A stretch of DNA of 64,000 bases from contig CAXXLX010000001.1 of NCBI GenBank assembly GCA_963665235.2, positions 896,001 through 960,000 on the forward strand. Direction: 5' to 3'. A program made the translations under genes and the position numbers. This DNA comes from Candidatus Poribacteria bacterium (lineage in GTDB: Bacteria; Poribacteria; WGA-4E; WGA-3G). Below, in pieces: positions 33,057 to 48,474 of this stretch. How positions within the stretch are numbered: the stretch's first letter is position 1; every line of letters begins with the position of its first letter. The notes under the pieces were generated by a model. That model saw nothing but the letters and a program-made list of their open reading frames with translations, searched no databases and was not told where the DNA came from.

Positions 33057-34328
33057 CTAACGCGCATCAACGGCATGCCGACTAAACTGTGTCAAATAAT
33101 TACCAATTTTATCTTGAATGCCCCGCGCTTGTGCTGATGAACCGATGTAGTGGCTAATCAAAATGCCGAACGCGAACACCTCACCATCTGCTGTAACAGT
33201 GTAACCAGCGAGTGAGGAGACACCACTCAACGTCCCAGTTTTCGCGCGTAACACCTTTTCCGCGTACATTCCCAGCATCCGATTTTTCAAGGTACCATCA
33301 ACCCCCGCAATTGGGAGCGATGCCAAATACTCCGGTCTCAACGCAAAGTTGTGATAGATATAGACAAGCAACTTTGTGAGCAGGTCAACGTTGAGAAGGT
33401 TATACCGGGAGACCCCAGAGCCGTCAAGGCATCGATGCATCGGGGGGGTATCCATAATTTCACCTAAAAATGCAGTGATAGCTGTTCTCCCCTTTTTCCA
33501 CGTTCCCGGTTCACCGATGACTTCTGCACCGATTGTCTTGAAAAGCAGTTCAGCGATGTAATTGTCACTCGGTTTGTTCATCAATTTAAGAATGTCGGCG
33601 AGGGGCGGCGATAGATGTGTGGCAACACGCTGCGCCGCTGATGGCACTGTGCCGAGGACGACCTCACCTGTCACGTCAACCCCTTTTTGTGTGAGCGTCC
33701 TTTTCAGGAGATGTCCACACGCGAGGGCTCTGCTGCCTGTACTATCATCAGGTTCAATGCTTCGGATGCTCAAGGCACTGAAGTGAAGCGGCCTATCGTC
33801 CCACATCCAGCCCGGCCCCTCTCGAACAGTGTCAAGGTATGTCTCATCAACGACAATGTTGCCCTGGACTGATTTTATGCCGGTGTGAAGCAGTGCATCC
33901 CCCAATTTCACGACATCGTCCGGTTGAAGCACCGGATCGGCGCGGCCTTTGAGATAGACGTTTTCTGCTACCTCCGCGTTCGCTGTAGTATCAACATAAA
34001 CCGTTGTTTCAAACCGATAATCTGAGCCTAGTTTTGCTAAGGCGGTTGCTGCGGTGAGCAGTTTCATCGTAGAGGCGGGATGGTGTAGCTTGTGGATATT
34101 TTTTCCGTAAACCACCTCGCCTGTTTCAACGGAAACAACCTTTATCCCGATGCTTGCTGTTGTGAACAACGCGTCCTGCAAAACCGCGTCAATATCGGCG
34201 TGTAGTTTTTCGAGCGGGTTTGCTATAGCGGTTGGCGGTTGGGTTTCAACCGGTTTCGTCGCGAATATGCCACAACTTGAGAGCAGCAGGACACCACAGA
34301 ATAAAAAGATAGAGAAAGTTTTTATCAT
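33057..34328 (-). CDS. dacB: D-alanyl-D-alanine carboxypeptidase/endopeptidase (PBP4, peptidase S13), lipoprotein
   Basis: Lipobox LSSC; PASTMK, SDN, DGSG.SRYN, KTGTL. Confidence 0.9.
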   Translation of the reverse strand: MIKTFSIFLFCGVLLLSSCGIFATKPVETQPPTAIANPLEKLHADIDAVLQDALFTTASIGIKVVSVETGEVVYGKNIHKLHHPASTMKLLTAATALAKLGSDYRFETTVYVDTTANAEVAENVYLKGRADPVLQPDDVVKLGDALLHTGIKSVQGNIVVDETYLDTVREGPGWMWDDRPLHFSALSIRSIEPDDSTGSRALACGHLLKRTLTQKGVDVTGEVVLGTVPSAAQRVATHLSPPLADILKLMNKPSDNYIAELLFKTIGAEVIGEPGTWKKGRTAITAFLGEIMDTPPMHRCLDGSGVSRYNLLNVDLLTKLLVYIYHNFALRPEYLASLPIAGVDGTLKNRMLGMYAEKVLRAKTGTLSGVSSLAGYTVTADGEVFAFGILISHYIGSSAQARGIQDKIGNYLTQFSRHAVDAR

Positions 34329-34396: not shown

Positions 34397-35158
34397 CTAC
34401 CTACTCGGTAAACCTAAAAATTCGTACGGGTCAATGCCCGCTTCCGCCATATCCACTACCTTAACCTCAGGGGGGATGTCCTTTTCCAAAACTTTACCCT
34501 TTTGTAGTTCAATGTTCCAGAGAATTTTTCCCATGTGAGGATCACCAGTCCTATCGGCGACAGATTTTTCCACCGTACCATCTGGTAGGACGGTCCGCTT
34601 CCATTTGACATAGACCACCCCGGGAAGAGTGGGGTAAATCAGTCCATCGTCCCTCATATTCCCGCCAAGTGCTCGTATTCCCTGTTTCCAAAGTTTGATA
34701 TGGACGCGTATCAGTAGTTCCCCTTCTGCGGTAAGTTCTGAGTGCCAAGCAGTGGCGGGGTAATCCGGATAATCCGGTGGTAACTCTGGATAGGGCCCAA
34801 ACCCATGCGGAGAAACAGGAACCTCCTCGGCGTTGGTTTCTGTTTGCTGTGTCGCCGCAGTAACGGGGCCGGTTTGTTCACCGGTGCGTCCGTCCGTCTC
34901 CGGAACTGCATCGGTTGTGTTGTTTATAGGTTTTTCTGCGGTTGGCGTTGGGCTTTCCATAGGTGCATCGGATATCGCTTGCGTCGTCTCTGCTTTCTGG
35001 GCGCGTTCCGCTTGACGTGGCATTTCCGCATTTTCCGCTGCTTGTTGCTTGTAGGGTGCCAGCTCATGCTGATACCAGAAATAGCAAGCAATACCGAAAA
35101 CAATCAGGAAACAAAAACCGCCTATAACCCACCTGTTTGTGAAATACTCACGTAACAT
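34397..35158 (-). CDS. MLREY-family membrane-anchored protein, C-terminal type A (copy 1)
   Basis: Conserved N-terminal TM module; SPHGFGPYPELP...GIDPYEFL. Confidence 0.8.
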   Translation of the reverse strand: MLREYFTNRWVIGGFCFLIVFGIACYFWYQHELAPYKQQAAENAEMPRQAERAQKAETTQAISDAPMESPTPTAEKPINNTTDAVPETDGRTGEQTGPVTAATQQTETNAEEVPVSPHGFGPYPELPPDYPDYPATAWHSELTAEGELLIRVHIKLWKQGIRALGGNMRDDGLIYPTLPGVVYVKWKRTVLPDGTVEKSVADRTGDPHMGKILWNIELQKGKVLEKDIPPEVKVVDMAEAGIDPYEFLGLPSR

Positions 35159-35178
35159 GTTTGTGCCTCCTTTACGTC

Positions 35179-35328
35179 TAAGACGTTAATTTTGTACCAA
35201 AAGCCCAATAAAAAAATGATTTTTTTGGAAAAAAGGTGCTAATTACAGGAAATGCAGAAGTCTGAAGCAGTTGTTATTGATTCATGATACCAAAAAATGT
35301 AAGAATAAATCAACCCAAAAGCGGCACC
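35179..35328 (-). promoter_or_regulatory. Conserved ~150-bp upstream module with putative ECF promoter (copy 1)
   Basis: GGGCTTTTGGTACAAAATTAACGTCTTA; module repeated at 37212-37362, 41744-41892 and partly at 42170-42220. Confidence 0.7.
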
Positions 35329-35517
35329 GGGGGACCATGATAGACATAGGACGACATAATGTGGCAGTGTGCGTTCTATATCTGGCATCCCCTCTCGGAA
35401 GGTGTTTCTACGGGATGAGGTGAATTGTCAACGGCAGCAGAAGGCTTTTGAAGGAAAAGGCATGGCGGGGACGGCGGGTGTGGGCGAAAAGAAACAGGCA
35501 GGTAACGCGATGGAGAA

Positions 35518-35549
35518 AGAGGCATCTGTGATAAGGGACACAGATGCCC
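35518..35549 (-). terminator. Probable terminator hairpin
   Basis: ggcatctgtg...cacagatgcc stem followed by a pyrimidine tract on the minus strand. Confidence 0.45.
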
Positions 35550-35689
35550 CTGGTATCACTGCAATTGAAGCATCAGTAGGCTATATGACTACATAAACGC
35601 ACATTATGAAATCTTTGATTTTTCATATTGCGCGTCTTTGGTGGTCTGAGACGACAGACAGCATCGTCATCATCGTCACCTTTGTTACT

Positions 35690-36421
35690 CTAATCCGCAT
35701 CTCCCTCATGCGCTTTATTATGTTCTGTGGGGTCGGGGAAATTCCACGCATTTGCATAAGCCTTGTTGGACAGAGCAGGACGGTACTTGTCTACTAAAAC
35801 CCATTTGGGATAAGGATCGTAATAAGACGGATCCCAAGGTTTGGGTGCAATATCAGGATTAATAGGGTCGACCTTTATCCACTCCTGCCAATTTTTTTCA
35901 GGACTGGCTCCGTTGATATCGCCCCATGCAGTGCATTGGGATAAATCCGTGTCTGCTTGTATATCTGCCCAACTTCCGTATCGGGCTTTGTCAGCAGCTG
36001 CCCATTCTTCATCGTTCTCAGCTAGACTTATGCTATCCTCTGCTTTTACCTTTCTCTTTACGTATCCAGCCCACGTTTCACGTGGTTCGTGATCTTCATC
36101 ATTAGGCACCCAGGCGTAGCACTCGTACTCGCCTTCGTAATCATCGATGTCCCGCGCATCTCCTAATACTTTGGCATACGCCTCATATTCTATACCGTAG
36201 CCGTTAAAGAATGCATCGATGGCGTTTCGTATGCCACGTTCTCCGGGATACTCTATATTCACGTCAATGTAGGCTTCGGCGGATAAGACACCATCGGCAT
36301 CGATTGAGGTGCATTTTCCCTAATGCTGTTTCACGTTTCTCTTTTGTTGATCCGCCAAAAGCACAGTGGCAGAGCTCCCTATCATCACAAAAATGAGTGT
36401 GTAAATTATAAAACGTTTCAT
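35690..36421 (-). pseudogene. Secreted partner protein of MLREY copy 2 with one in-frame TAG (36320-36322)
   Basis: GGAGG RBS + MKRFIIYTLIFVMIGSSATVLLA signal peptide in frame with ORF 35690-36262; a single stop between them. Confidence 0.7.
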
Positions 36422-36432
36422 AATCATCCTCC

Positions 36433-37191
36433 CTATTTGGGTAAATCAAGGAAGGTATAGGGGTCTATACCACCCTCTTCATAAGGTATCAGTTTGATAC
36501 CGGGAAAGTCAGACGCTGTGACACTTTCACGCCGTCGTTTCTTTTCTTGTTCGATTGTTTCCATATCATCATCGGGATGTCCGAGCACATCGCGTAGATA
36601 ACGTCTGCCTCTGGATGTCTCGCCCCATCTTACATAGCAGACCCCTTTGATGATAGGGTATACCAAGCCATTGCTCATAACAGTTCCTTCTACCGGAACC
36701 CCTTGTTTCAGAAGTTTTATCCTAACACGTATCATCAACTCGGATTCAGCACTCTTGCGTGGCCATGTAATAGGTCCAAATCCTTCGGGTAATTCGGGAT
36801 AGGGTCCGAAACCGTAAGGGGAGATGAGCGCATTTTTAGGAACTGGTATAGGTGGTGGTTTCGGCCCGATATAGATGTCGTCTGTTAGGAAAAACCCTTT
36901 GTCTTCTGTCTCGTTCCTGTTTGTTTCCTCTTGTGAGCCTATATCGGGGTTTCTGTTTTTCTCTGTAGTTGACGTTGTGCTTTCCATAGGTGCATCAGCG
37001 GTCGGTTTCGCATCGCGGTCTGTATCGGATTTTTGGAGGTCCGCTTGGCGTAGCATTTCCGCGGTTTCTGCTTTTGATTGTTCGTAGGGTGCCAGTTCAT
37101 GCTGATACCAGAAATAGCAAGCAATACCGAAAACAGTAAGGAAACAAAAACCACCTATAACCCACCTATTTGTGAAATACTCACGTAACAT
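36433..37191 (-). CDS. MLREY-family membrane-anchored protein, type A (copy 2)
   Basis: Same N-terminus; SPYGFGPYPELP...GIDPYTFL. Confidence 0.8.
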   Translation of the reverse strand: MLREYFTNRWVIGGFCFLTVFGIACYFWYQHELAPYEQSKAETAEMLRQADLQKSDTDRDAKPTADAPMESTTSTTEKNRNPDIGSQEETNRNETEDKGFFLTDDIYIGPKPPPIPVPKNALISPYGFGPYPELPEGFGPITWPRKSAESELMIRVRIKLLKQGVPVEGTVMSNGLVYPIIKGVCYVRWGETSRGRRYLRDVLGHPDDDMETIEQEKKRRRESVTASDFPGIKLIPYEEGGIDPYTFLDLPK

Positions 37192-37211
37192 TTTGGTTCC
37201 TCCTCTACGCC

Positions 37212-37362
37212 TAAGACGTTAATTTTGTGCCAAAGACCCCATAAAAGATGATTTTTTTTGGAAAAAAGGTGCTAATTACAGGAAATGCAGAAGTCTGAAG
37301 CAGTTGTTATTGGTTCATGATACCAAAAAATGTAAAAATAAATCAACCCAAAAGTGGCACCG
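37212..37362 (-). promoter_or_regulatory. Conserved upstream module with putative ECF promoter (copy 2)
   Basis: GGGGTC-16 bp-CGTCTTA then GGAGG RBS. Confidence 0.7.
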
Positions 37363-37606
37363 TGGTATACATAGGATAGCATTCGGAGAGTGCCCATTAC
37401 CTTTTTAATGTGGCAGCGTGCGTTTTGTCTCTATATCTGGCATCCCTTCGCGGAGCGCGTTGCCACGGGATGAGGCGCATTGTTAATGGCAGCTGAAGAC
37501 TTTTGAAGGAAAAGGCGCGGCGAGTGCAAGTAAAAAGAAAAGCAGGTCCCTCCGCTAGCAGGGGAGAGTAAGGGAGGGACTTGCTTTTGAAATCAATGAT
37601 GGGTTC

Positions 37607-38557
37607 CTAAAAATTAAAATACCACCACTCAGGATGTCCACAAGGACTATTATAACAAATCCATGAAAAACCAGAGGCAATGCAACCGTTTCCATAACAA
37701 ACGTAGGAATGATAATGTGTGCCTGGCACCTCATAACCGTGTCCAGCATCGGCATCGGCAGGACAGAGCGGTACCCGGCTGGTTCCATAAAGACCTATAT
37801 TTGGAACAGCACACTTGGTCCCTGTTGGAAACTCGTCCTCTGAGCGGATCTCAATTGTGAACGATTCAGTTGGTTCTTGGACCACACCGGGAAATCCCTG
37901 GGGTGCAGTGACACTCCCTGCCGCATAATTTAATGAAAAACTAAAACCTGCTCCACCTGCTCCACCGCCTGCACCACCGCCATGTTCCGACACTGCTGCA
38001 CCATACGCCGTTACACTATAGGTAATTGTTTGTGGCTCATCCACTATATAATAACTTGACGCACTACAAGACACAGAACCCGTAGCGTCTCCGCCGTTTT
38101 TTTGATAAATGGTCTTATCGTTCACATCACCAAGATGGTGTGTCCATCCAGCAGTGCTCTCGACTTTTCCCATACATGCAACATGCCCCTTGAAAGAATC
38201 TGCGCGGGTTGCATCAAGACGGCCGGTAGCATAAAAATCCACTTTGACTTTCTTTTTAAAAAACTCCTTGTCTTTATCAGGCAGGAAGTCTTTTGGTTCA
38301 TCAAACGACTCATACTGACCTGTGTCGATATTCTTAAGATACTGATAACCAATATTGTGCCATCGATGAACGGTACCGACAGTTGAATAATTAGAGCCCT
38401 CATCGCGTGTGCCGAACGTATAATAATACCCCGGGGTAACGTCCGTACTGTCACTTATTACGGGCCCAGGGCCGACATCTTGTGATTGTACGTTGTCAAT
38501 AACTATAAATCCTATCATAAAAATGGACAGGGTGAATATCAAAAACTTAAATTTCAT
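37607..38557 (-). CDS. Secreted partner protein of MLREY copy 3, Cys-rich C-terminus
   Basis: Signal peptide MKFKFLIFTLSIF; TVG.V.RW..IGYQ.L.N..TG and W.CYNSPCG shared with the 43315 gene. Confidence 0.75.
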   Translation of the reverse strand: MKFKFLIFTLSIFMIGFIVIDNVQSQDVGPGPVISDSTDVTPGYYYTFGTRDEGSNYSTVGTVHRWHNIGYQYLKNIDTGQYESFDEPKDFLPDKDKEFFKKKVKVDFYATGRLDATRADSFKGHVACMGKVESTAGWTHHLGDVNDKTIYQKNGGDATGSVSCSASSYYIVDEPQTITYSVTAYGAAVSEHGGGAGGGAGGAGFSFSLNYAAGSVTAPQGFPGVVQEPTESFTIEIRSEDEFPTGTKCAVPNIGLYGTSRVPLCPADADAGHGYEVPGTHYHSYVCYGNGCIASGFSWICYNSPCGHPEWWYFNF

Positions 38558-39821
38558 CAAAATCTTCGGATTGGAAACCCCCAGCATTTATGCGGGGGAG
38601 GAAAATCCGCCTTTATAGTTGAAGTTCAAGCGTGTTAGCACTTGAAAATCCGTGCGTTTTGCCCCCGTTGTTAATCGGTGTCCATCTTTTGAATAGACAG
38701 AGAATAGTCCTTTAGCATTAACACCCGCAAGGCGTGTTAATCCGTATTTGTTGTGCTTTATTAATGTGTTTTTAACAAGTCCATCGCCTAATAAGGTGCC
38801 ACCATATCGCGGGCGATTGCCACCTTTCTGCGGATTTTGTCTGTGGAGTTGTCGCCTGCGTATCGGTATCGGTGAGATACAGAATATATCGGTATTGTCG
38901 GGTATCTCTAAACCGCCCACGGTGTGATAGGCCAAGCACCAACTATCAACGCAATGTGCCTCAAAGGTTTCAGCTAACTTCTTTGACGACTTGTTGAGAC
39001 CCAGACGCTCGCGTATCTCTTTGGTTTCAAACCCTTGTATCGTCAGGAGTTCCCATCGCTTTTCTACCTCTGAATAGAACCAATGCTTGCCCACTTCCAA
39101 AGGACTGAAGGCCTGATTCCACTGCTTTTGATACTGTTTTGTCCGCGCCTTAATATCCTCAACACAGACGTGTGTAACAGGATAGAGTTTAGACAACCAA
39201 TCTAATATGCGAAGTTTCCAATCCCATCTTGCACGTGTGCCTGCAGGGATACGCTTCCGGTTCGACAGGTTGTGCTGCTTCTTTTTTCGATTCGGGCATT
39301 TCCGTGTGCGTCTGCTTCTCCGCAACGTCCGACGCTTCTCGATTTTCTTTCCAACCTTGTTGTGAGCGTCTGCTTGCACATTTAGGTAGGTATGTGCCTC
39401 GCTCTTGACGGTAAAGCCTTCCTTCTTACTGCCGGGGTCTACGCCTACGCATATCTGTTGGAAGTATCTATCCGAAGGGTCGGCGTTAAGGCGCACACAA
39501 AAAACGCCATTCTTCCAAAACGGTGTGGCTTTCTTGTCTCGTATCCACTTCCTTGCCCGCGAAGGCTTTGTCGGCATCAGTGGATTTTGGTTTTTGTCAA
39601 CGACAGGAACAAACATAGTTTGTAATTCTCCGTAGAGTTTGTATTTCCCCATCCAGATCGGTATATCAGCGTTTACATCGGACTTGGGGAGCATCCGAAA
39701 CACCTTTGTGCACCACCACAGATATACCGATATATTACTGTAGTGAAGAACTTAATCTTTGACAGGGAACGTGTGGTTACGCTATGTCAAAGCACCCATG
39801 CTTTAGCAGGGTGATCTTTAC
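38558..39821 (-). mobile_element. IS200/IS605-family IsrB (OMEGA) element
   Basis: 5' end GTAAAGATCACCCTGC-TAAA-GCATGGGTG hairpin; 3' hairpin CCCCCGCA-TAAA-TGCTGGGGG; removing the element rejoins the RBS to the ATG. Confidence 0.82.
38588..39616 (-). CDS. isrB: IsrB RNA-guided nickase (IscB homolog lacking HNH), 342 aa
   Basis: N-terminal PLMP, RuvC-I GVDPG, Arg-rich bridge helix RRTLRRSRRTR, RuvC-II VED, RuvC-III HCVD; no CxxC/HNH insert; GGAG RBS before ATG 39616. Confidence 0.88.
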   Translation of the reverse strand: MFVPVVDKNQNPLMPTKPSRARKWIRDKKATPFWKNGVFCVRLNADPSDRYFQQICVGVDPGSKKEGFTVKSEAHTYLNVQADAHNKVGKKIEKRRTLRRSRRTRKCPNRKKKQHNLSNRKRIPAGTRARWDWKLRILDWLSKLYPVTHVCVEDIKARTKQYQKQWNQAFSPLEVGKHWFYSEVEKRWELLTIQGFETKEIRERLGLNKSSKKLAETFEAHCVDSWCLAYHTVGGLEIPDNTDIFCISPIPIRRRQLHRQNPQKGGNRPRYGGTLLGDGLVKNTLIKHNKYGLTRLAGVNAKGLFSVYSKDGHRLTTGAKRTDFQVLTRLNFNYKGGFSSPA

Positions 39822-39841
39822 TTTATTCCTCCTTTGGCACA
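39630..39841 (-). ncRNA. Putative omegaRNA (scaffold ~39630-39821 plus 5' guide ~39822-39841)
   Basis: Position upstream of isrB; terminal hairpin; gtatatc/gatatac and cgga...tccg pairings; GGATGCTCCCCAAGTCC resembles the conserved omegaRNA core; boundaries approximate. Confidence 0.7.
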
Positions 39842-39885
39842 GGATGCGCCATTTTTTCTCCTGAAAACAGGATATTCTAGCAGAC

Positions 39886-40833
39886 CTATTCTGGCACTCG
39901 CGCGTTAAATAATCTATTTCTCCATTGACGCGAAATTTTTGCGGCTTCTGATTCCCGCTCTATTGTTATGCCGAGTTCTATTTCAATCTCATCAAGGATT
40001 TCCTCAACGACAACGTCAGTACGTCTGAGTGTCCGTTGGGGTGAGCGTGTCGCTGCGTTCAGTGCTTCGCTCATAAGGTGCCTTTCGTTCTCTCTATCCG
40101 CCTCAGTTACCGGCCTGTCGTAATAGACAGAAGACGTGGCTATTGCGGTAGGTCCGTAAGTCTTTTCACGGAGTTCCATATACCATTCTTGTGCCAGCTC
40201 ACAAACTTCGGGAGGATAAGCAAGCATCTGATGTGGGTGTCCCCCGGCAGCAATGAAACTTGCTACAGATTCTTGATTATCTTTAATAAACCCAAGAGCG
40301 GTGTAACGTTCATATTCCGCGTCCGTGAGTTGGTGAAATTGGTTGTATTGGGGCGGTCCCTGTTTCACCTTAATGATAGGCACATTATTTGGGACAAGTT
40401 CCCACACACCTGTCTCTTTATTAAAATCGTGATGGTATCCCTCCGGGGGTGGAGTTAATCCCCGTTCTGCAAAAAATGCGCGCTTTACTGCATCTCGCGT
40501 TGTCTGAGGAAGTTTAGCATACTCCTCTTTGGACAAATTGTATAACGCTTTCCAATTGACGGGCCAGTCCGCATCTTCTGGCCACTCTATCGTGATATCC
40601 TCCAATTTGAGAGGTGTTTTTTCTGCGGTTGGCGTTGTGCTTTCCAAGGGAGCACCGGCGGTCGGTTCCGCTTGGGTGCGTTCCGCTTGGCGTATCAGTT
40701 CTGCGGTTTCTGCTTCTGATTGTTCGTAGGGAGCCAGCTCATGCTGGTACCAGAAATAGCAAGCAATACCGAAAACAATCAGGAAACAAAAACCACCTAT
40801 AACCCACCTATTTGTGAAATACTCACGTAACAT
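39886..40833 (-). CDS. MLREY-family membrane-anchored protein, C-terminal type B (copy 3)
   Basis: Same N-terminus (AAGGAG RBS, ATG 40833); ITIEWPE.ADWPVNWK, HQLTD.EYERY, ILDEIE.ELGITIERE. Confidence 0.8.
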   Translation of the reverse strand: MLREYFTNRWVIGGFCFLIVFGIACYFWYQHELAPYEQSEAETAELIRQAERTQAEPTAGAPLESTTPTAEKTPLKLEDITIEWPEDADWPVNWKALYNLSKEEYAKLPQTTRDAVKRAFFAERGLTPPPEGYHHDFNKETGVWELVPNNVPIIKVKQGPPQYNQFHQLTDAEYERYTALGFIKDNQESVASFIAAGGHPHQMLAYPPEVCELAQEWYMELREKTYGPTAIATSSVYYDRPVTEADRENERHLMSEALNAATRSPQRTLRRTDVVVEEILDEIEIELGITIERESEAAKISRQWRNRLFNARVPE

Positions 40834-40873
40834 GTTCGTTTCTCCTTTATGCCCGCGCAGGACATATTTGTCA

Positions 40874-41692
40874 TCAAAATTGTCCATTGCTAACACTATT
40901 GGAGCCTGAAGCCGTTTTCTTCTGCCGTGCAATAATTTTCTTCCAACGTGCCATCGCCCGATTTAAGCCCTCCACAACATCCTGCGACGAAACACGTAAA
41001 AATGTAGCAATATCCGCACAAGAAGACAGATCTAACAGATACTGTCCCATCATCGTCCGCTCATCGCCCGGGAGGCGGCTGAGCAAAGATGGCAATTGAC
41101 TTTCGATAGTCTTGACGAGTGTTCTCGTCCGGTTCATTCTATGCTTAACCGATTTTAACGTTGTGTCGGTTAACGCTGCTATCCTCTTTTGCGTCAGGTT
41201 CCCGATATAGTAGAGCTGCATCACCTGCTGGTCCTTGTGTGGAAGCAGACGAATTATGCGTTTTAGCTGGATAGCTTGCTGACGCTGTGCTTCAATTTGC
41301 TGCGCCTGCTTGTGAACTACAAGAGCTGCCGTATCTGCAAGAGGCACAGTATAGGGTTCTCCAGCCGCGTCAACTTCAGCGGGAGATTCGTCTATAGAAA
41401 CCAACGTTATGCGTTTAGCGTGTCGTGCAGCTTTACGCATCCTATCCTTAGCAGTATTCGCGGCGATGGTAAGCAACCAGCCTAAAATATTGTCAACCCG
41501 CCTCAGTTTTTTCATCTTACGGAACGCTTTGGAAAAGGTATCATTCACAACTTCCTCAGCATCTTCATGATTTTTCAAAAGCCTGAATGCGCAGCTGTAA
41601 ACGGCATCGTAATACGTTTGGAATATCAAGTTCAAGGCTGCCTCGTCATCAAGTTCATCCAGTCGCTGAATCCGTTCGGCATTCTTTTTCAT
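40874..41692 (-). CDS. ECF sigma-70 factor with an additional C-terminal sigma4-like repeat
   Basis: sigma2 DAEEVVNDTF...WLLTIAAN; sigma4 LP.KDQQVM.LYY...TQKRIA...VKHRMNR; second LP.DER.MM..Y...IA..L...V...LNRA. Confidence 0.85.
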   Translation of the reverse strand: MKKNAERIQRLDELDDEAALNLIFQTYYDAVYSCAFRLLKNHEDAEEVVNDTFSKAFRKMKKLRRVDNILGWLLTIAANTAKDRMRKAARHAKRITLVSIDESPAEVDAAGEPYTVPLADTAALVVHKQAQQIEAQRQQAIQLKRIIRLLPHKDQQVMQLYYIGNLTQKRIAALTDTTLKSVKHRMNRTRTLVKTIESQLPSLLSRLPGDERTMMGQYLLDLSSCADIATFLRVSSQDVVEGLNRAMARWKKIIARQKKTASGSNSVSNGQF

Positions 41693-41743
41693 ATCATAAA
41701 CCTCCTACTAAAGAGAAATAACATGAAATGTGCTTATATTCTT

Positions 41744-41892
41744 TAAGACGTTAATTTTGTGCCAAAGACCCCATAAAAAATGATTTTTTGGAAAAAAGGC
41801 GTTAATTGCAAGAAATCCAGAAGTCTGAAGCAGTTGTTATTGCTTTATGATACCAAAAAATGTAAGAATAAATCAACCTAAAAATGGCACCG
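41744..41892 (-). promoter_or_regulatory. Conserved upstream module with putative ECF promoter (copy 3, upstream of the sigma gene)
   Basis: GGGGTCTTTGGCACAAAATTAACGTCTTA. Confidence 0.7.
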
Positions 41893-41905
41893 CTCCGTTT
41901 AAGTA

Positions 41906-42160
41906 ATACCAAATTAACACAATTCGTCTCGTTCCACTCTTCCGCTCCAGCGGAGCGTCCGTGAAGACGATGAATCAAATGAAGTTGGTATTAGCCATCC
42001 GGGCGATATGTTTCATGCGCGAAATCCTCTTTTTTCCGCGTTCTCCGCGTTCTCCGCGCCTTCCGCGATTCAGACAATAAACATAAACATACCAAAAACC
42101 TTCCCGTTAGCATCCGACATCACGGTCCGTGAAGACGATGAATCAAATCAATTTGGTATA
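41906..42160. repeat. Two tiny ATACCAA...TTGGTAT inverted-repeat elements (41906-41991, ~42089-42159) flanking a reversed gtctgaatcgcgga repeat
   Basis: Both share gtccgtgaagacgatgaatcaaat; the first is TA-flanked. Confidence 0.6.
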
Positions 42161-42191
42161 ATACCGTATTTCCAAAAAAAACATTTTTTAT

Positions 42192-42220
42192 GGGGCCTTT
42201 GGCACAAAATTAACGTCTTA
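42192..42220 (+). promoter_or_regulatory. Putative ECF promoter (copy 4, divergent)
   Basis: GGGGCC-16 bp-CGTCTTA. Confidence 0.7.
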
Positions 42221-42286
42221 GGGGTATAAGGACATTTCATGAGCTTCGTATCAATAACGCATCGTAACAGATTTGGAGGTATCAAC

Positions 42287-43261
42287 ATGTTACGTGAATA
42301 TTTTACAAATAGGTGGGTTATAGGTGGATTTTTGTTCCTCATTGTTTTTGGTATTGCCTGCTACTTCTGGTACCAACACGAGCTGGCACCCTATAAACAA
42401 CCGGAAGTGGAATCCGCAGAACTGCTACGCCAATCGGAACGCGCCCAAAAGGCAGAGATAGGGAGTGAGACAGAGCAGGCAGCCGATATACCTATGGAAA
42501 GCGTAACGCCGTCCGCAAAGACAGGCCCTCTCAAATTGGCGGATATCACGATAGAGTGGCCAGAAGGCGCAGACTGGCCCGTCAATTGGAAGGAGTTAGT
42601 CGCGCTGCCACCGGAAGAGTATCATAAACTTCCTGCAGCAACAAGACAGGCAATAGTGAAAGCATACTACGCGGAACATGGACTTGAGAGACCACCAGCA
42701 GGGTTCCACTACAGACTAAATAGTAAGACAGGTGCGTGGGACCTCCATCCGAACAATAAACCCATCATAACAATTCATTGGAAAGGAAACTCATACGGAC
42801 AGCTACACCAACTCACGGATGAAGAATATGAGCGGTATAAGGCGTTGGAAAGAATTGCCACAAACCCTGAGTCTGTCGCATCACACCTCGAAAGAGGTGG
42901 CCGTCCAAGTCAGTACCTAGCCTATCCGCTTGCGGCATGCAATTTGGCACAGAAATGGTTCGACGTGCTCCACGAAAAAACGCGCGGTCCCGCGCCGAGT
43001 GCTACCTCGGGTGCCTTTTACGATAGGGAATATACAGAATCCGATAGGGAAAGGGACCACCGTTTAATACGCGAAGCTATAGACGCGGTGACCCCGCCTC
43101 CTCGGGATGGCAGCGTCGATGAGACGGTTCTGAATCAAATCCTTGATGAAATCGAGGCAGAACTTGGAATCACAATAGAACGGGAAACCCAAGCTGAAAA
43201 GTTTTCTCGTCGACATTTCGAGCAAATATTAAACTCACTCGAATCGTGGGAAGATAGGTAG
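42287..43261 (+). CDS. MLREY-family membrane-anchored protein, type B (copy 4)
   Basis: GGAGG RBS, ATG 42287; full-length similarity to copy 3. Confidence 0.8.
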   Translation: MLREYFTNRWVIGGFLFLIVFGIACYFWYQHELAPYKQPEVESAELLRQSERAQKAEIGSETEQAADIPMESVTPSAKTGPLKLADITIEWPEGADWPVNWKELVALPPEEYHKLPAATRQAIVKAYYAEHGLERPPAGFHYRLNSKTGAWDLHPNNKPIITIHWKGNSYGQLHQLTDEEYERYKALERIATNPESVASHLERGGRPSQYLAYPLAACNLAQKWFDVLHEKTRGPAPSATSGAFYDREYTESDRERDHRLIREAIDAVTPPPRDGSVDETVLNQILDEIEAELGITIERETQAEKFSRRHFEQILNSLESWEDR

Positions 43262-43314
43262 ATAAGTAACTCCCTTCTCCCCCCCCGAGCTCCGAAAGGA
43301 ATAGGAGAAAAAAG

Positions 43315-44140
43315 ATGAAAACACAGATATCAATCATTTTGTTAGTTGTACTTTTACTGTTACCGCAAGCAAGCACTGCGAACGGCGACAACACAACCCA
43401 AACGAATCAGGAATTGACAACGACAGCCAATATCCGTTTAAACTCTACAAATAGAACTGTCGGTGAGGTGAAGCGATGGAGAGATATTGGGTATCAATCT
43501 CTGATGAACCTAAACACCGGAGAGACCGAAAGATTCGAAGAATACCCAAAGGCCATATATCCATCGACGGTAAAGTGGTACGACAAGGAGGTAAAGGTTT
43601 ATGCAGTTATTGAAGCCACTTTTAAACCCGTACGGAGCGTAGCCTTCCGGGCGGATGCCCGTGTCGACGGTAGAGTCACATCGGACGATAGTCCTCAGAC
43701 GATTAACGAACCACTTACGGGAGTGGATCACGCTATGTCCGATATTCTTTGGATTCAGACATCTCTTGGGCCTCGATATAGCGCACGAGGCCATACCGCA
43801 ACAGCGGTAGCCACTGCCACCTCAAAAACATACACCTTGAAGAAACCGATGACCGTGTCTGTCTACGCAGATGGACAGGGAGATGCAGTTCCGGGTACGG
43901 GTGGCGGTTTCTCGTTTAGCATCCCTATCTACAAGGATCGCGACCTCAGTCTGGGAATTCTGCATCTGCAACTTGTATAATTACGCCTGTGGGAATGCAG
44001 GAAATCCTGCTTGTTTTTGCGGTTCAGGTCCACCAAAATATACGTTCGCCGAAAGGTGGGTTTGTTACAACAGTCCTTGTGGACCCCGGGCTGTCGCAAA
44101 TCATCACGCGTTGCTTCGATGGTATTACCCTATTATGTGA
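43315..44140 (+). pseudogene. Secreted partner of MLREY copy 4, frameshifted near 43940
   Basis: Signal peptide; homologous to 37607-38557; Cys-rich tail (WVCYNSPCG...WYY) lies in another frame ending at 44140. Confidence 0.68.
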
Positions 44141-44162
44141 AAAGGAACACTGTCTTTTCAAA

Positions 44163-44200
44163 AAGCAGGTATCCTTACGGGGTACCTGCTTATTTTTTTA
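44163..44200 (+). terminator. Rho-independent terminator
   Basis: aagcaggtatcc-ttac-ggggtacctgctt followed by a T tract. Confidence 0.7.
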
Positions 44201-44350
44201 TTACAGAGACGCGTCCGCTACATATTCGTTTTTGGCTCATGTTATAGGTGTGTGCGATTGTTTTTATAAACGCAATGGCCACAGGAGTTGAATTTTTGAG
44301 CCCCATCCTTCCAATCTTAAAATCTTCCATTCCTCACAACAATTAAATTC

Positions 44351-46566: not shown

Positions 46567-46603
46567 GTAATCAGCAATCAGGTCAAGCAGACTGCCCCTT
46601 AAT

Positions 46604-47233
46604 ATCGCGTGCACAGCACGCTCCTACAGAAGAGAACGGTTGAAAAACATCGCGTGCACAGCACGCTCCTACAGAAGAGAACGGTTGAAAAACATCGCGT
46701 GCACAGCACGCTCCTACAGAAGAGAACGGTTGAAAAACATCGCGTGCACAGCACGCTCCTACAGAAGAGAACGGTTGAAAAACATCGCGTGCACAGCACG
46801 CTCCTACAGAAGAGAACGGTTGAAAAACATCGCGTGCACAGCACGCTCCTACAGAAGAGAACGGTTGAAAAACATCGCGTGCACAGCACGCTCCTACAGA
46901 AGAGAACGGTTGAAAAACATCGCGTGCACAGCACGCTCCTACAGAAGAGAACGGTTGAAAAACATCGCGTGCACAGCACGCTCCTACAGAAGAGAACGGT
47001 TGAAAAACATCGCGTGCACAGCACGCTCCTACAGAAGAGAACGGTTGAAAAACATCGCGTGCACAGCACGCTCCTACAGAAGAGAACGGTTGAAAAACAT
47101 CGCGTGCACAGCACGCTCCTACAGAAGAGAACGGTTGAAAAACATCGCGTGCACAGCACGCTCCTACAGAAGAGAACGGTTGAAAAACATCGCGTGCACA
47201 GCACGCTCCTACAGAAGAGAACGGTTGAAAAAC
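46604..47233. repeat. 14 identical 45-bp tandem units, each with a GTAG-REP palindrome
   Basis: atcgcgtgcacagcacgctcctacagaagagaacggttgaaaaac x14. Confidence 0.93.
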
Positions 47234-47301
47234 CAGCGAAAAAATGATACCACACCCCGTTTCGCCGGTAGCCGACAGCTACCGAAAGGAGATAAAAACT
47301 T

Positions 47302-48474
47302 ATGGACTACGGAATTCCACGCGCTGTTCCCGAAGAGGTCGGAATGTCAACATCGCGGCTAGGACGAATTGCCCCGGTAATGCAAAAGTGGGTGGATGCA
47401 AACAAAATCCCCGGCGCATTGACAATGATAGCGCGTGAAGGCAAGCTCATCCATTTTGAAAAATTCGGCATGCAGGATGTCGCAACTGCTAAACCGATAG
47501 AATTTGATACCATCTTCCGCATCTACTCCATGACTAAACCGATTACCAGCATCGCCGTGATGATGCTTTATGAGGAGGGACATTTTCAACTCAATTCACC
47601 GGTATCCGAATTTATCCCCGCTTTCAGAGATATGAAGGTTTACGCGAATCATGGGGATGCAATTGTTGATGCGGAACGAGAGATGACGATAAAACATCTG
47701 CTCACGCATACCTCCGGGCTTATCTATGGCGGCGATTGGCCGCATCCGATTAATAAACGGTATAAAGAAGCGAATTTCTACAGTGGCGATCTCGGAAATA
47801 TGTCACGGGCACTTGGAGATATCCCGCTTTTGCATCAGCCCGGCGGATGGTGGAGCTACGGCATGTCTACCGATGTACTCGGCTATCTGGTAGAAGTGGT
47901 GTCAGGCATACCGTTCGCTGAATTTTTGGAAACGCGCATTTTTGAACCGCTCCGCATGAGCGATACCGCCTTTTCCGTTCCAGAAGAAAAGGCGGACCGA
48001 TACGCAACATTATATGAACCCGCGGAAGATGGCGGTATTCAGGTGCTTGAGAACGCGCCTGTTTCAAGTGGACCGCTCAGCTTTTTTCACTCTGGGGGTG
48101 CGGGGTTACAGTCAACCGCTGCCGATTATCTGCGCTTCTGCCAAATGATGCTCAACGAGGGAGAACTAGATGGTGTCCGTTTGCTCGGTAGAAAAACGGT
48201 AGAACTTATCACAATGAATCATATCTCTGACGACTGGCAACCCCTTGAAAGAACAGGAAACGGTTTCGGGCTCGGATTTGCGGTCGTTACCGATGTCGCC
48301 AACACACACGGCCCCAGTTCCAAAGGCACGTACAGCTGGGGTGGGCTTGCAAGCACAACATTCTGGATCGATCCGGTGGAAGAGTTAATTGCGATTTTGA
48401 TGACACAACTCATCGGCGATTCCCCATTCCACGCCCAATTCCGAGTGCTAACTTATCAAGCAATTAGCGATTAG
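47302..48474 (+). CDS. Serine hydrolase, beta-lactamase class C-like (cytoplasmic paralog)
   Basis: YSMTK, LLTHTSG, WGGLASTTFWIDP. Confidence 0.88.
   Translation: MDYGIPRAVPEEVGMSTSRLGRIAPVMQKWVDANKIPGALTMIAREGKLIHFEKFGMQDVATAKPIEFDTIFRIYSMTKPITSIAVMMLYEEGHFQLNSPVSEFIPAFRDMKVYANHGDAIVDAEREMTIKHLLTHTSGLIYGGDWPHPINKRYKEANFYSGDLGNMSRALGDIPLLHQPGGWWSYGMSTDVLGYLVEVVSGIPFAEFLETRIFEPLRMSDTAFSVPEEKADRYATLYEPAEDGGIQVLENAPVSSGPLSFFHSGGAGLQSTAADYLRFCQMMLNEGELDGVRLLGRKTVELITMNHISDDWQPLERTGNGFGLGFAVVTDVANTHGPSSKGTYSWGGLASTTFWIDPVEELIAILMTQLIGDSPFHAQFRVLTYQAISD

Follow-up and report, generated by a model that had tools for sequence, protein, structure and literature searches.

The window analyzed here, a 64,000-nucleotide stretch of a Candidatus Poribacteria genome (contig CAXXLX010000001.1, positions 896,001 to 960,000), carries four genes whose products share a nearly identical N-terminal membrane anchor and then diverge into one of two unrelated domains, A or B. 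The evidence strongly supports an architecture in which a constant 5′ block is joined to exchangeable modules, each consisting of a domain and the secreted partner encoded behind it, with local capture of the promoter of an extracytoplasmic function (ECF) sigma factor. Poribacteria are counted among the most dominant sponge symbionts (abstract of PMC3909097). Below, G000 denotes the genome of the window; L, P, and G labels denote loci, proteins, and genomes of its relatives, and X labels denote sequencing runs. The A-type and B-type partner families are called Ap and Bp.

Four Anchor Genes Carry Two Unrelated Domains

All four genes lie exactly where a sequence-only reading of the window had placed them (Table 1). 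The common start of ~36 residues that it described was recovered as well: copies 1 and 3 are identical over it, and copies 2 and 4 differ by one residue. This likeness extends to the DNA, as had also been claimed, with 93–104 of 108 bases identical in all six pairs. Codon differences within the 36 residues of the four copies are mostly synonymous (4–13 per pair vs. 0–2 non-synonymous), and the single hydrophobic segment of the anchor begins at residue 10. Behind the proline/threonine/glutamate (P/T/E) linker, the A domains of copies 1 and 2 are identical at 57 of 129 positions, and the B domains of copies 3 and 4 at 130 of 241. A and B are separate families rather than two branches of one family with congruent N- and C-terminal trees; their profiles (105 and 60 sequences) could not be aligned (hhalign probability 0.1%, E 0.52). 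Domains 73–82% identical to that of copy 2 occur in 12 loci of other Poribacteria.

None of the four anchor and partner families is named by a family library or a solved structure, and the locus therefore did not resolve into an already characterized protein class. Neither the four copies nor the copy 3 partner matched any Pfam family at E 0.1, Lipase_chap included. Pfam and NCBIfam contained no family for anchors or partners save one sub-threshold match on a signal region; scattered matches among family members each concerned a single member. Profiles of A, B, Ap, and Bp retrieved nothing from the PDB sequences at E 0.001 (best E 0.019), and the ESM Atlas gave no usable match for domain A (predicted local distance difference test, pLDDT, of the Atlas model, 0.44).

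Partner Type Follows Domain Type

Ap partners are secreted proteins, mostly of 150–250 aa, encoded behind A genes; Bp partners, of ~200–550 aa, have a beta core with variable Cys-rich or other tails and are encoded behind B genes. The two kinds of module did not mix. Of 145 A genes, 52 were followed by an Ap gene and 0 by a Bp gene, and of 76 B genes, 39 were followed by a Bp gene and 0 by an Ap gene, genes at locus edges (six A, seven B) being omitted. Partner type thus co-segregates with domain type, and with 91 matched pairs against no crossed pair, downstream partners are not distributed at random with respect to type. Genome searches that started from the partners, with 30 of 75 Ap matches and 30 of 56 Bp matches used, gave the same picture: an A gene preceded the partner at 28 of 30 Ap loci, and a B gene did so at 27 of 30 Bp loci. 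For loci outside alignments A9 and A3, the counts were 11 of 13 and 7 of 10. Partner similarity follows domain similarity (Spearman 0.54 over 47 pairs and 0.66 over 27 pairs, reached by 0 of 500 permutations, with pairs of domain similarity ≥0.75 omitted) and shows no relation to anchor similarity (Spearman −0.00 and −0.01). Twelve short or unrelated downstream open reading frames (ORFs) were removed from the Bp alignment, three Ap candidates from alignment A4, and fragments plus three long proteins from alignment A7 (118 rows). A common origin of Ap and Bp is unsupported (hhalign probability 1.4%), though one Ap protein matched the Bp profile at 5e-5.

The 5′ Block Has Been Swapped or Homogenized Among Modules

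The anchor has a history of its own. At four-fold sites the anchors differ at 2–4 of 12 positions, compared with 25 of 28 for the A domains and 33 of 58 for the B domains. In three genomes, anchors identical at 36 of 36 residues occur on both A and B domains, and the 5′ block has therefore been swapped or homogenized. G000 itself has 12 full anchor-bearing genes, nine with A, two with B, and one with another domain; three further A domains sit on different N termini. The other B genes of this genome also start differently, so in copies 3 and 4 a B domain has an anchor that elsewhere goes with A. Locus L208 holds an array whose seven anchors carry B, five A, and a third domain type behind its own repeated upstream block, and L209 is similar. 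Among the five A genes of L208, anchors are 83–100% identical and domains 35–50%.

Trees of anchors and domains, once compared, were incongruent. In the anchor tree (29 rows and 42 columns, with few strong forks), L208, L209, and G000 rows group by genome regardless of domain. In the A-domain tree, made by a quick method, copy 1 pairs with the domain of another genome (Shimodaira–Hasegawa-like approximate likelihood ratio test, SH-aLRT, 98) and not with copy 2. Domains 73–75% identical to that of copy 4 sit on a different anchor in P0122 and P0127, and so does a copy 3-like domain in L271. Moreover, a joint in run X6 (40689 to 35020) shows that in a related strain the copy 3 domain has a start of copy 1 type; it matches protein P0129. 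Diversification by recombination at the constant 5′ block, as the sequence-only reading proposed, is accordingly supported by the incongruent trees and the identical anchors on A and B. Since no site-specific recombinase was recognized by eye among window ORFs of at least 170 aa, we infer homologous recombination or gene conversion as the route. An inversion between the inverted blocks at 41722–41794 and 42169–42241 was considered and set aside, there being no such joint among the joints listed (35 further joints lie outside these).

Much of this could in principle follow from paralog expansion with concerted evolution, whereby envelope genes co-travel by linkage and gene conversion homogenizes the 5′ block, with no binding between the products. 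Many anchors do stand without a partner, and lesions are frequent, both as such an account would have it. Nevertheless, we think it quite unlikely: the contrast of 0 crossed with 91 matched pairs holds across genera and for partners that have diverged past pairwise recognition, and the predominance of synonymous over non-synonymous anchor differences also speaks against it.

The Neighboring ECF Sigma Factor and Its Promoter Motif

The ECF sigma gene that had been noticed within the locus was confirmed by matches to Pfam Sigma70_r2 and r4_2. Scores for PF04542 (53.5 bits), PF08281 (40.2 bits), and TIGR02937 all exceed the cut-offs, and there is no region 3 match. The C-terminal extension is identical to the protein’s own region 4 at 13 of 55 positions (E 0.002). 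The constant promoter block ascribed to all copies stands before copies 1 and 2 and the sigma gene (~150 bp) and, shortened to 60–74 bp, before copy 4; it is missing before copy 3, which follows the sigma gene. The long block also holds a sigma70-like site, in a scan that was at chance level overall (19 sites vs. 16.4 ± 4.0).

Of 111 family genomes, 16 contain close relatives of the sigma factor, 17 in all. In 4 of these 17 loci, sigma is directly followed by an A gene, its anchor similar, and by a gene for a secreted protein; the others lead into different anchor genes, secreted genes, or unrelated genes. The pattern TG-N21-CGTC, picked after viewing the window block, occurs upstream of sigma in 7 of 17. 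A promoter matrix (matrix 1) derived from six distinct sites of relatives, none from G000, gave genome-wide ranks 1–4 to the window sites, that of copy 4 leading, followed by those of sigma, copy 2, and copy 1 (scores 31.6–23.3; fifth 22.0, sixth 17.3); two shuffles of 1.5 Mb contained no site scoring 20 or more. A matrix 1 site, with the bipartite motif TG-N21-CGT, precedes sigma in 15 of 15 re-fetched relatives’ loci, 10 of them outside the training set, and in L200 and L205 a second motif copy precedes an anchor gene, as in the window. The motif was not found before the other eight anchor genes of G000 or in arrays L206–L209, and sigma lies within 3.5 kb in just 2 of 75 A loci. The proposed control of the cassettes by sigma is therefore retained locally, where one motif is common to sigma and copies 1, 2, and 4, and given up for the family, which is phylum-wide and mostly not sigma-linked. 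Judged by these sequence patterns, the link between sigma and motif is real but local: the motif is probably read by the neighboring sigma, and the block at this locus appears to be the promoter that this sigma uses for itself.

The fifth matrix 1 match (G000:C1:976269, minus strand, outside the window) lies 198 nt ahead of a gene whose product looks secreted, a possible further regulon member. Operons of the sigma subfamily (L190–L200) often continue into STT3-like glycosyltransferase genes, named by eye, and 370–390-aa paralogs, and they hold a different pair type, a small ‘MKMTN’ protein with an ‘MFTWKRLF’ anchor. N-glycosylation by the STT3-like genes near some cassettes was rejected, N-x-S/T sequons not being enriched (z 1.4 for Bp, −1.3 for Ap). 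The accessible literature, which included few subscription journals and no supplements, held nothing on an expansion of ECF sigma factors or an ECF promoter motif in Poribacteria, and the word ‘Poribacteria’ is absent from the main text of PMC7826278.

In a sensor arrangement, the anchor protein behind sigma would be its anti-sigma factor and the secreted partner a ligand or co-sensor. Anti-sigma factors are usually single-pass proteins encoded at position +1 (passages of PMC7826278), which is where the A-type anchor stands in the 4 of 17 relatives’ loci mentioned above. We nevertheless regard this arrangement as very improbable. With just ~10 residues before the helix, the anchor protein does not show the cytoplasmic domain expected of an anti-sigma factor; the +1 gene is unconserved (it may encode an A, B, or other anchor, a small secreted protein, or something unrelated); and most anchors have no sigma nearby. 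The C-terminal extension points the same way, since such extensions of ECF sigma factors typically accompany the absence of an anti-sigma factor (passages of PMC7826278).

Predicted Folds and Condition of the Partners

Models were built from relatives of the window proteins, one for each partner family. The Bp model (a G000 paralog; 118-row alignment) reached pLDDT 92 as an elongated beta structure, and the Ap model, of a protein 39–41% identical to the partner of copy 2, reached pLDDT 89 with eight long strands. Both are predicted, with confidence, to be beta-sandwiches lacking a clear fold match, and the weak matches that follow may serve as leads only. For Bp, the best structures were AggA (4ph8; Z 6.1, root-mean-square deviation [rmsd] 4.0, 116 aligned) and CsgH (2n59; Z 5.9, rmsd 2.9, 91 aligned), and AggA, transglutaminase and immunoglobulin (Ig) domains, CsgH, and hemolysin caps tie. 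Hemolysin/leukocidin or aerolysin toxins gave Z 4.9–5.6 with rmsd 4.2–5.7 over 131–140 aligned residues, tied with Ig-like folds. For Ap, the top Foldseek row was the MspA porin rim domain (2v9u; E 0.013, template modeling score 0.29; Z 4.5, rmsd 6.3), and 64 of 66 residues of lactococcin 972 could be aligned (Z 4.2, rmsd 2.7).

The window partners have suffered more than the sequence-only reading allowed. Those of copies 3 and 4 are homologous, as it stated (31% over 171 aa, E 2e-16), but an insertion element parts copy 3 from its partner, and the Cys tail of the copy 4 partner lies in another frame. The secreted partner of copy 2 does exist and belongs to Ap, but as a gene it is interrupted by an in-frame TAG; uninterrupted relatives are found in L048, L049, L051, L052, and L054. 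Both lesions (the TAG and the frame of the copy 4 partner) recur in contigs of runs X1 and X4 with 0–1 differences and no gaps, these runs coming from one study that is possibly the source; run X6 has no cover over most of both Cys-tailed partners. From their sequences, the partners of copies 3 and 4 would seem to form a separate or far-diverged group, one that in G154, too, comes after a domain like that of copy 4. A search of 40 relatives found neither the copy 3 partner nor the 181-bp upstream block; a homolog of the partner was found later, only in G154. As for copy 1, no partner lies behind it, in agreement with the sequence-only reading, the next gene being Peptidase_S13. This gene (DacB-type; 33057–34328) shares its strand with copy 1 and starts 68 bp past it, so that the promoter of copy 1 could serve it as well.

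These observations bear on an effector-immunity system, in which the partner would be an oligomerizing pore-former or envelope-active bacteriocin acting among sponge symbionts and the anchored domain its cognate immunity protein, so that arrays would gather orphan immunity genes while partners decay. Partners almost never occur without an anchor, and anchors are often alone; since partners need anchors and anchors do not need partners, this fits immunity and a tether or chaperone equally. In the window, 4 of 4 anchors are intact and 3 of 3 partners damaged. Hemolysin-family toxins also give the longest Bp alignments among the weak matches (NetF Z 5.6, rmsd 4.2, 135 aligned), the MspA rim and the nearly whole lactococcin 972 head or accompany the Ap matches, and an alternating Ser/Thr-hydrophobic hairpin was seen by eye in several Bp proteins. 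We nevertheless consider effector-immunity unlikely. The toxin matches are no better than background for beta folds, with Ig-like and unrelated folds scoring as well or higher. Searched against G000 at E 10, the Pfam models for MspA and Lactococcin_972 give 0 matches, and 33 Bp members include no Pfam toxin family. The domain is the conserved member of the pair (median normalized similarity 0.32, against 0.00 for partners), A is reused in tetratricopeptide repeat (TPR), peptidase-like, and other fusions, and broken anchors occur too.

Distribution in Poribacteria

Domain A is present in 113 of the 151 phylum genomes searched, and a single genome can have as many as 27 scored matches. For domain B the figure is 34 of the 61 family genomes searched. 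From 378 confirmed A matches, 75 loci were retrieved, of which 70 are titled Poribacteria and 5 uncultured bacterium. A scan of JGI metagenomes gave 341 candidates, none confirmed. Domain A also forms the C terminus of TPR proteins (Pfam) and occurs in a 1207-aa protein with two A domains and in 612-aa secreted proteins (L035, L036, L037, L089, L097 for these contexts), and in P0006 it is fused to an STT3-like tail. Many B-type spacers carry a His motif, ‘GHWH.G.WH’ or ‘HGDHWH’, that is absent from copies 3 and 4 (L040, L043, L045; P0124, P0125, P0137, P0138) and that we take to be histidine-triad-like. The third domain type on the same anchor (L208:10756-12356, 317 aa) has its own 216-aa secreted partner, and yet another type (G000:C1:878488-879444) has none.

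An IsrB-Like Insertion Element and Other Features of the Locus

The 1.26-kb RRXRR element between copy 3 and its partner went unreported in the sequence-only reading. It is an intruder, outside the cassette proper: it ends at the ATG of the partner and leaves the GGAGG site on its far side. Its protein matches PF14239 (113 bits) and no HNH family and scores 93.5 bits against NCBIfam guided_IscB, below the cut-off of 175; the HEARO RNA match is weak (25.8 bits vs. gathering 83, E 0.048). Near-identical copies lie elsewhere in the genome, and G000 has about 25 related loci. The element abuts ATGA in 7 of 7 copies compared (the window and six others in G000) and therefore tends to land on start codons; two copies, in the window and at G000:C1:672142-674850, part an anchor gene from its partner. 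In passages of PMC9581776, IsrB/IscB OMEGA elements (obligate mobile element-guided activity) likewise have an RRXRR protein of ~350 aa with an upstream HEARO-like RNA, and insertion before ATGA falls within the NTGA preference reported for DtIsrB. The window protein differs from these in lying under the guided_IscB cut-off.

Table 1. Features of the cassette locus, in window coordinates
Feature	Position	Strand
Copy 1: anchor, P/T/E linker, and domain A, 253 aa; no partner behind	34397..35158	-
Constant upstream block of copy 1; ECF-like motif 35178-35214, sigma70-like site 35284-35313	35178..35329	-
Ap partner of copy 2 (A-type, secreted); frame interrupted by TAG as codon 34 (36320-36322)	35690..36421	-
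Copy 2: anchor, linker, and domain A, 252 aa	36433..37191	-
Constant upstream block of copy 2; ECF-like motif 37211-37247	37206..37362	-
Partner of copy 3: secreted, beta-rich, with Cys tail; frame open over 316 aa, ribosome-binding site beyond insertion element	37607..38557	-
IS200/605-type element; RRXRR protein (IsrB/IscB-like, ~341 aa), weak HEARO RNA match	38558..39821	-
Copy 3: same anchor and domain B, 315 aa; directly 3′ of sigma gene	39886..40833	-
ECF sigma factor (272 aa) with a C-terminal extension of ~70 aa that looks like a second region 4	40874..41692	-
Constant upstream block of sigma gene; ECF-like motif 41743-41779	41722..41892	-
Short inverted block copy before copy 4; ECF-like motif 42185-42221	42163..42241	+
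Copy 4: same anchor and domain B, 324 aa	42287..43261	+
Partner of copy 4: secreted, homolog of the copy 3 partner; frame lost near 43925-43960, so that the Cys tail is in another frame	43315..44140	+
Terminator-like 13-pair hairpin and T run; closes copy 4 unit	44163..44191	+

Short intergenic repeats at 41899–42161 and 44230–44297 have dozens of copies genome-wide, and a long tandem repeat at 46599–47362, with a 17-residue period, is open in three listed frames.

Proposed Mechanism

We propose that each unit is a two-gene envelope module. The anchor protein would span the membrane once, with ~10 cytoplasmic residues, one helix, an acidic P/T/E spacer, and domain A or B facing outward. The anchored domain would bind the beta-sandwich protein encoded behind it as a dedicated tether or a folding and hand-over partner, and the secreted protein would be a variable surface or matrix protein, often with Cys-rich or other add-on tails. 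That the anchor protein is a dedicated tether or chaperone for a variable secreted surface protein is a possibility we take seriously while placing it somewhat short of probable. The heritable unit would be the outer domain together with its partner, and the 5′ block (promoter, ribosome-binding site, and anchor) would be copied separately and homogenized by recombination within each genome, so that unrelated modules come to sit behind the same expression and targeting signal. At this locus, the block would be the autoregulatory promoter of the neighboring ECF sigma, through which copies 1, 2, and 4 would join the regulon of the sigma–copy 3 operon. Of these elements, the module structure, the type-matched pairing, the homogenized 5′ block, and the shared motif are established by the data above.

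Several results weigh against this proposal. No recognized partner or second anchor stands behind 85 of 145 A genes and 27 of 76 B genes. The fusion of A to TPR and other proteins, together with the many A genes lacking a partner, means that A needs no partner. Linkage alone would also make partner follow domain. Since the counted partners in part served to train the pairing profiles, and since genomes of relatives are not independent samples, the absence of crossed pairs is the firmer result. Every anchor in the window is intact, yet each of the three partners is broken or has been cut off, a state that fits immunity at least as well, and the partners of copies 3 and 4 miss significance on the Bp profile (E 0.016 and 0.057), a range shared by some Ap proteins. 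Neither the Ap nor the Bp model found a fold match at Foldseek E 0.001 or Z 8. Finally, when a second matrix was built on ten sites from a single genus, the window sites came only 11th, 52nd, 61st, and ~562nd; the matrix 1 result therefore leans on the variant of another genus.

In its broadest form, which we hold to be rather doubtful, the proposal is of a plug-and-play envelope system: a genome-specific 5′ block would be recombined onto a library of handler domains with secreted beta-sandwiches, rewiring both the surface proteins or pore-formers and the sigma that controls them; handlers would bind their cognate cargo, and the cargoes would be a new oligomeric surface or pore class for life in sponges. 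What the locus offers is an envelope module that exists in many copies and comprises no fewer than four uncatalogued families, in dominant sponge symbionts. It is also a clean genomic case of regulon rewiring, in which promoter and anchor are swapped as one block, and its predicted ECF promoter, with a regulon of four sites, is testable in a heterologous host. If the pairs bind, a new principle of dedicated chaperoning, display, or immunity would follow.

Comparison with Known Systems

The sigma factor resembles the extension-bearing, autoregulatory ECF sigma factors described in passages of PMC7826278: it consists of regions 2 and 4 plus an extension, its own gene is preceded by a conserved motif, and no anti-sigma factor is conserved beside it. 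It differs in that its extension resembles a second region 4. The beta-sandwich of the Ap and Bp models is shared with fimbrial, curli-accessory, and Ig-like sandwiches, pore-former caps (NetF, alpha-hemolysin), and the MspA rim, but Z values of at most 6.1 and identities of 5–17% single out no clear best match. No usher or PapD-type gene was recognized by eye in the loci listed, whose neighbors were not scanned for usher families.

Passages retrieved by keyword from PMC3909097 and PMC5087111 mention no such cassette.

In polymorphic toxin-immunity cassettes, such as the effector-immunity arrays of type VI secretion systems, MafB, and contact-dependent inhibition systems, a constant 5′ part is recombined onto variable 3′ modules. 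They share this with the present system, along with type-matched pairs and orphan members in arrays. Here, in contrast, the constant part is on the anchored protein, the anchored gene comes first, and no toxin domain was detected.

Lif/LipB with LipA consists of an N-terminally anchored periplasmic helper with a variable spacer, its gene beside that of one cognate secreted client. The likeness lies in the anchored helper gene adjoining a secreted client gene. A lipase-specific foldase was rejected as the identity of the anchor proteins, there being no Lipase_chap match and the partner models being all-beta. Unlike that system, domains A and B have no Pfam, NCBIfam, or PDB sequence match, the client is all-beta with no recognized enzyme fold, and the Poribacteria have many copies, two unrelated helper domains, and an interchangeable 5′ block.

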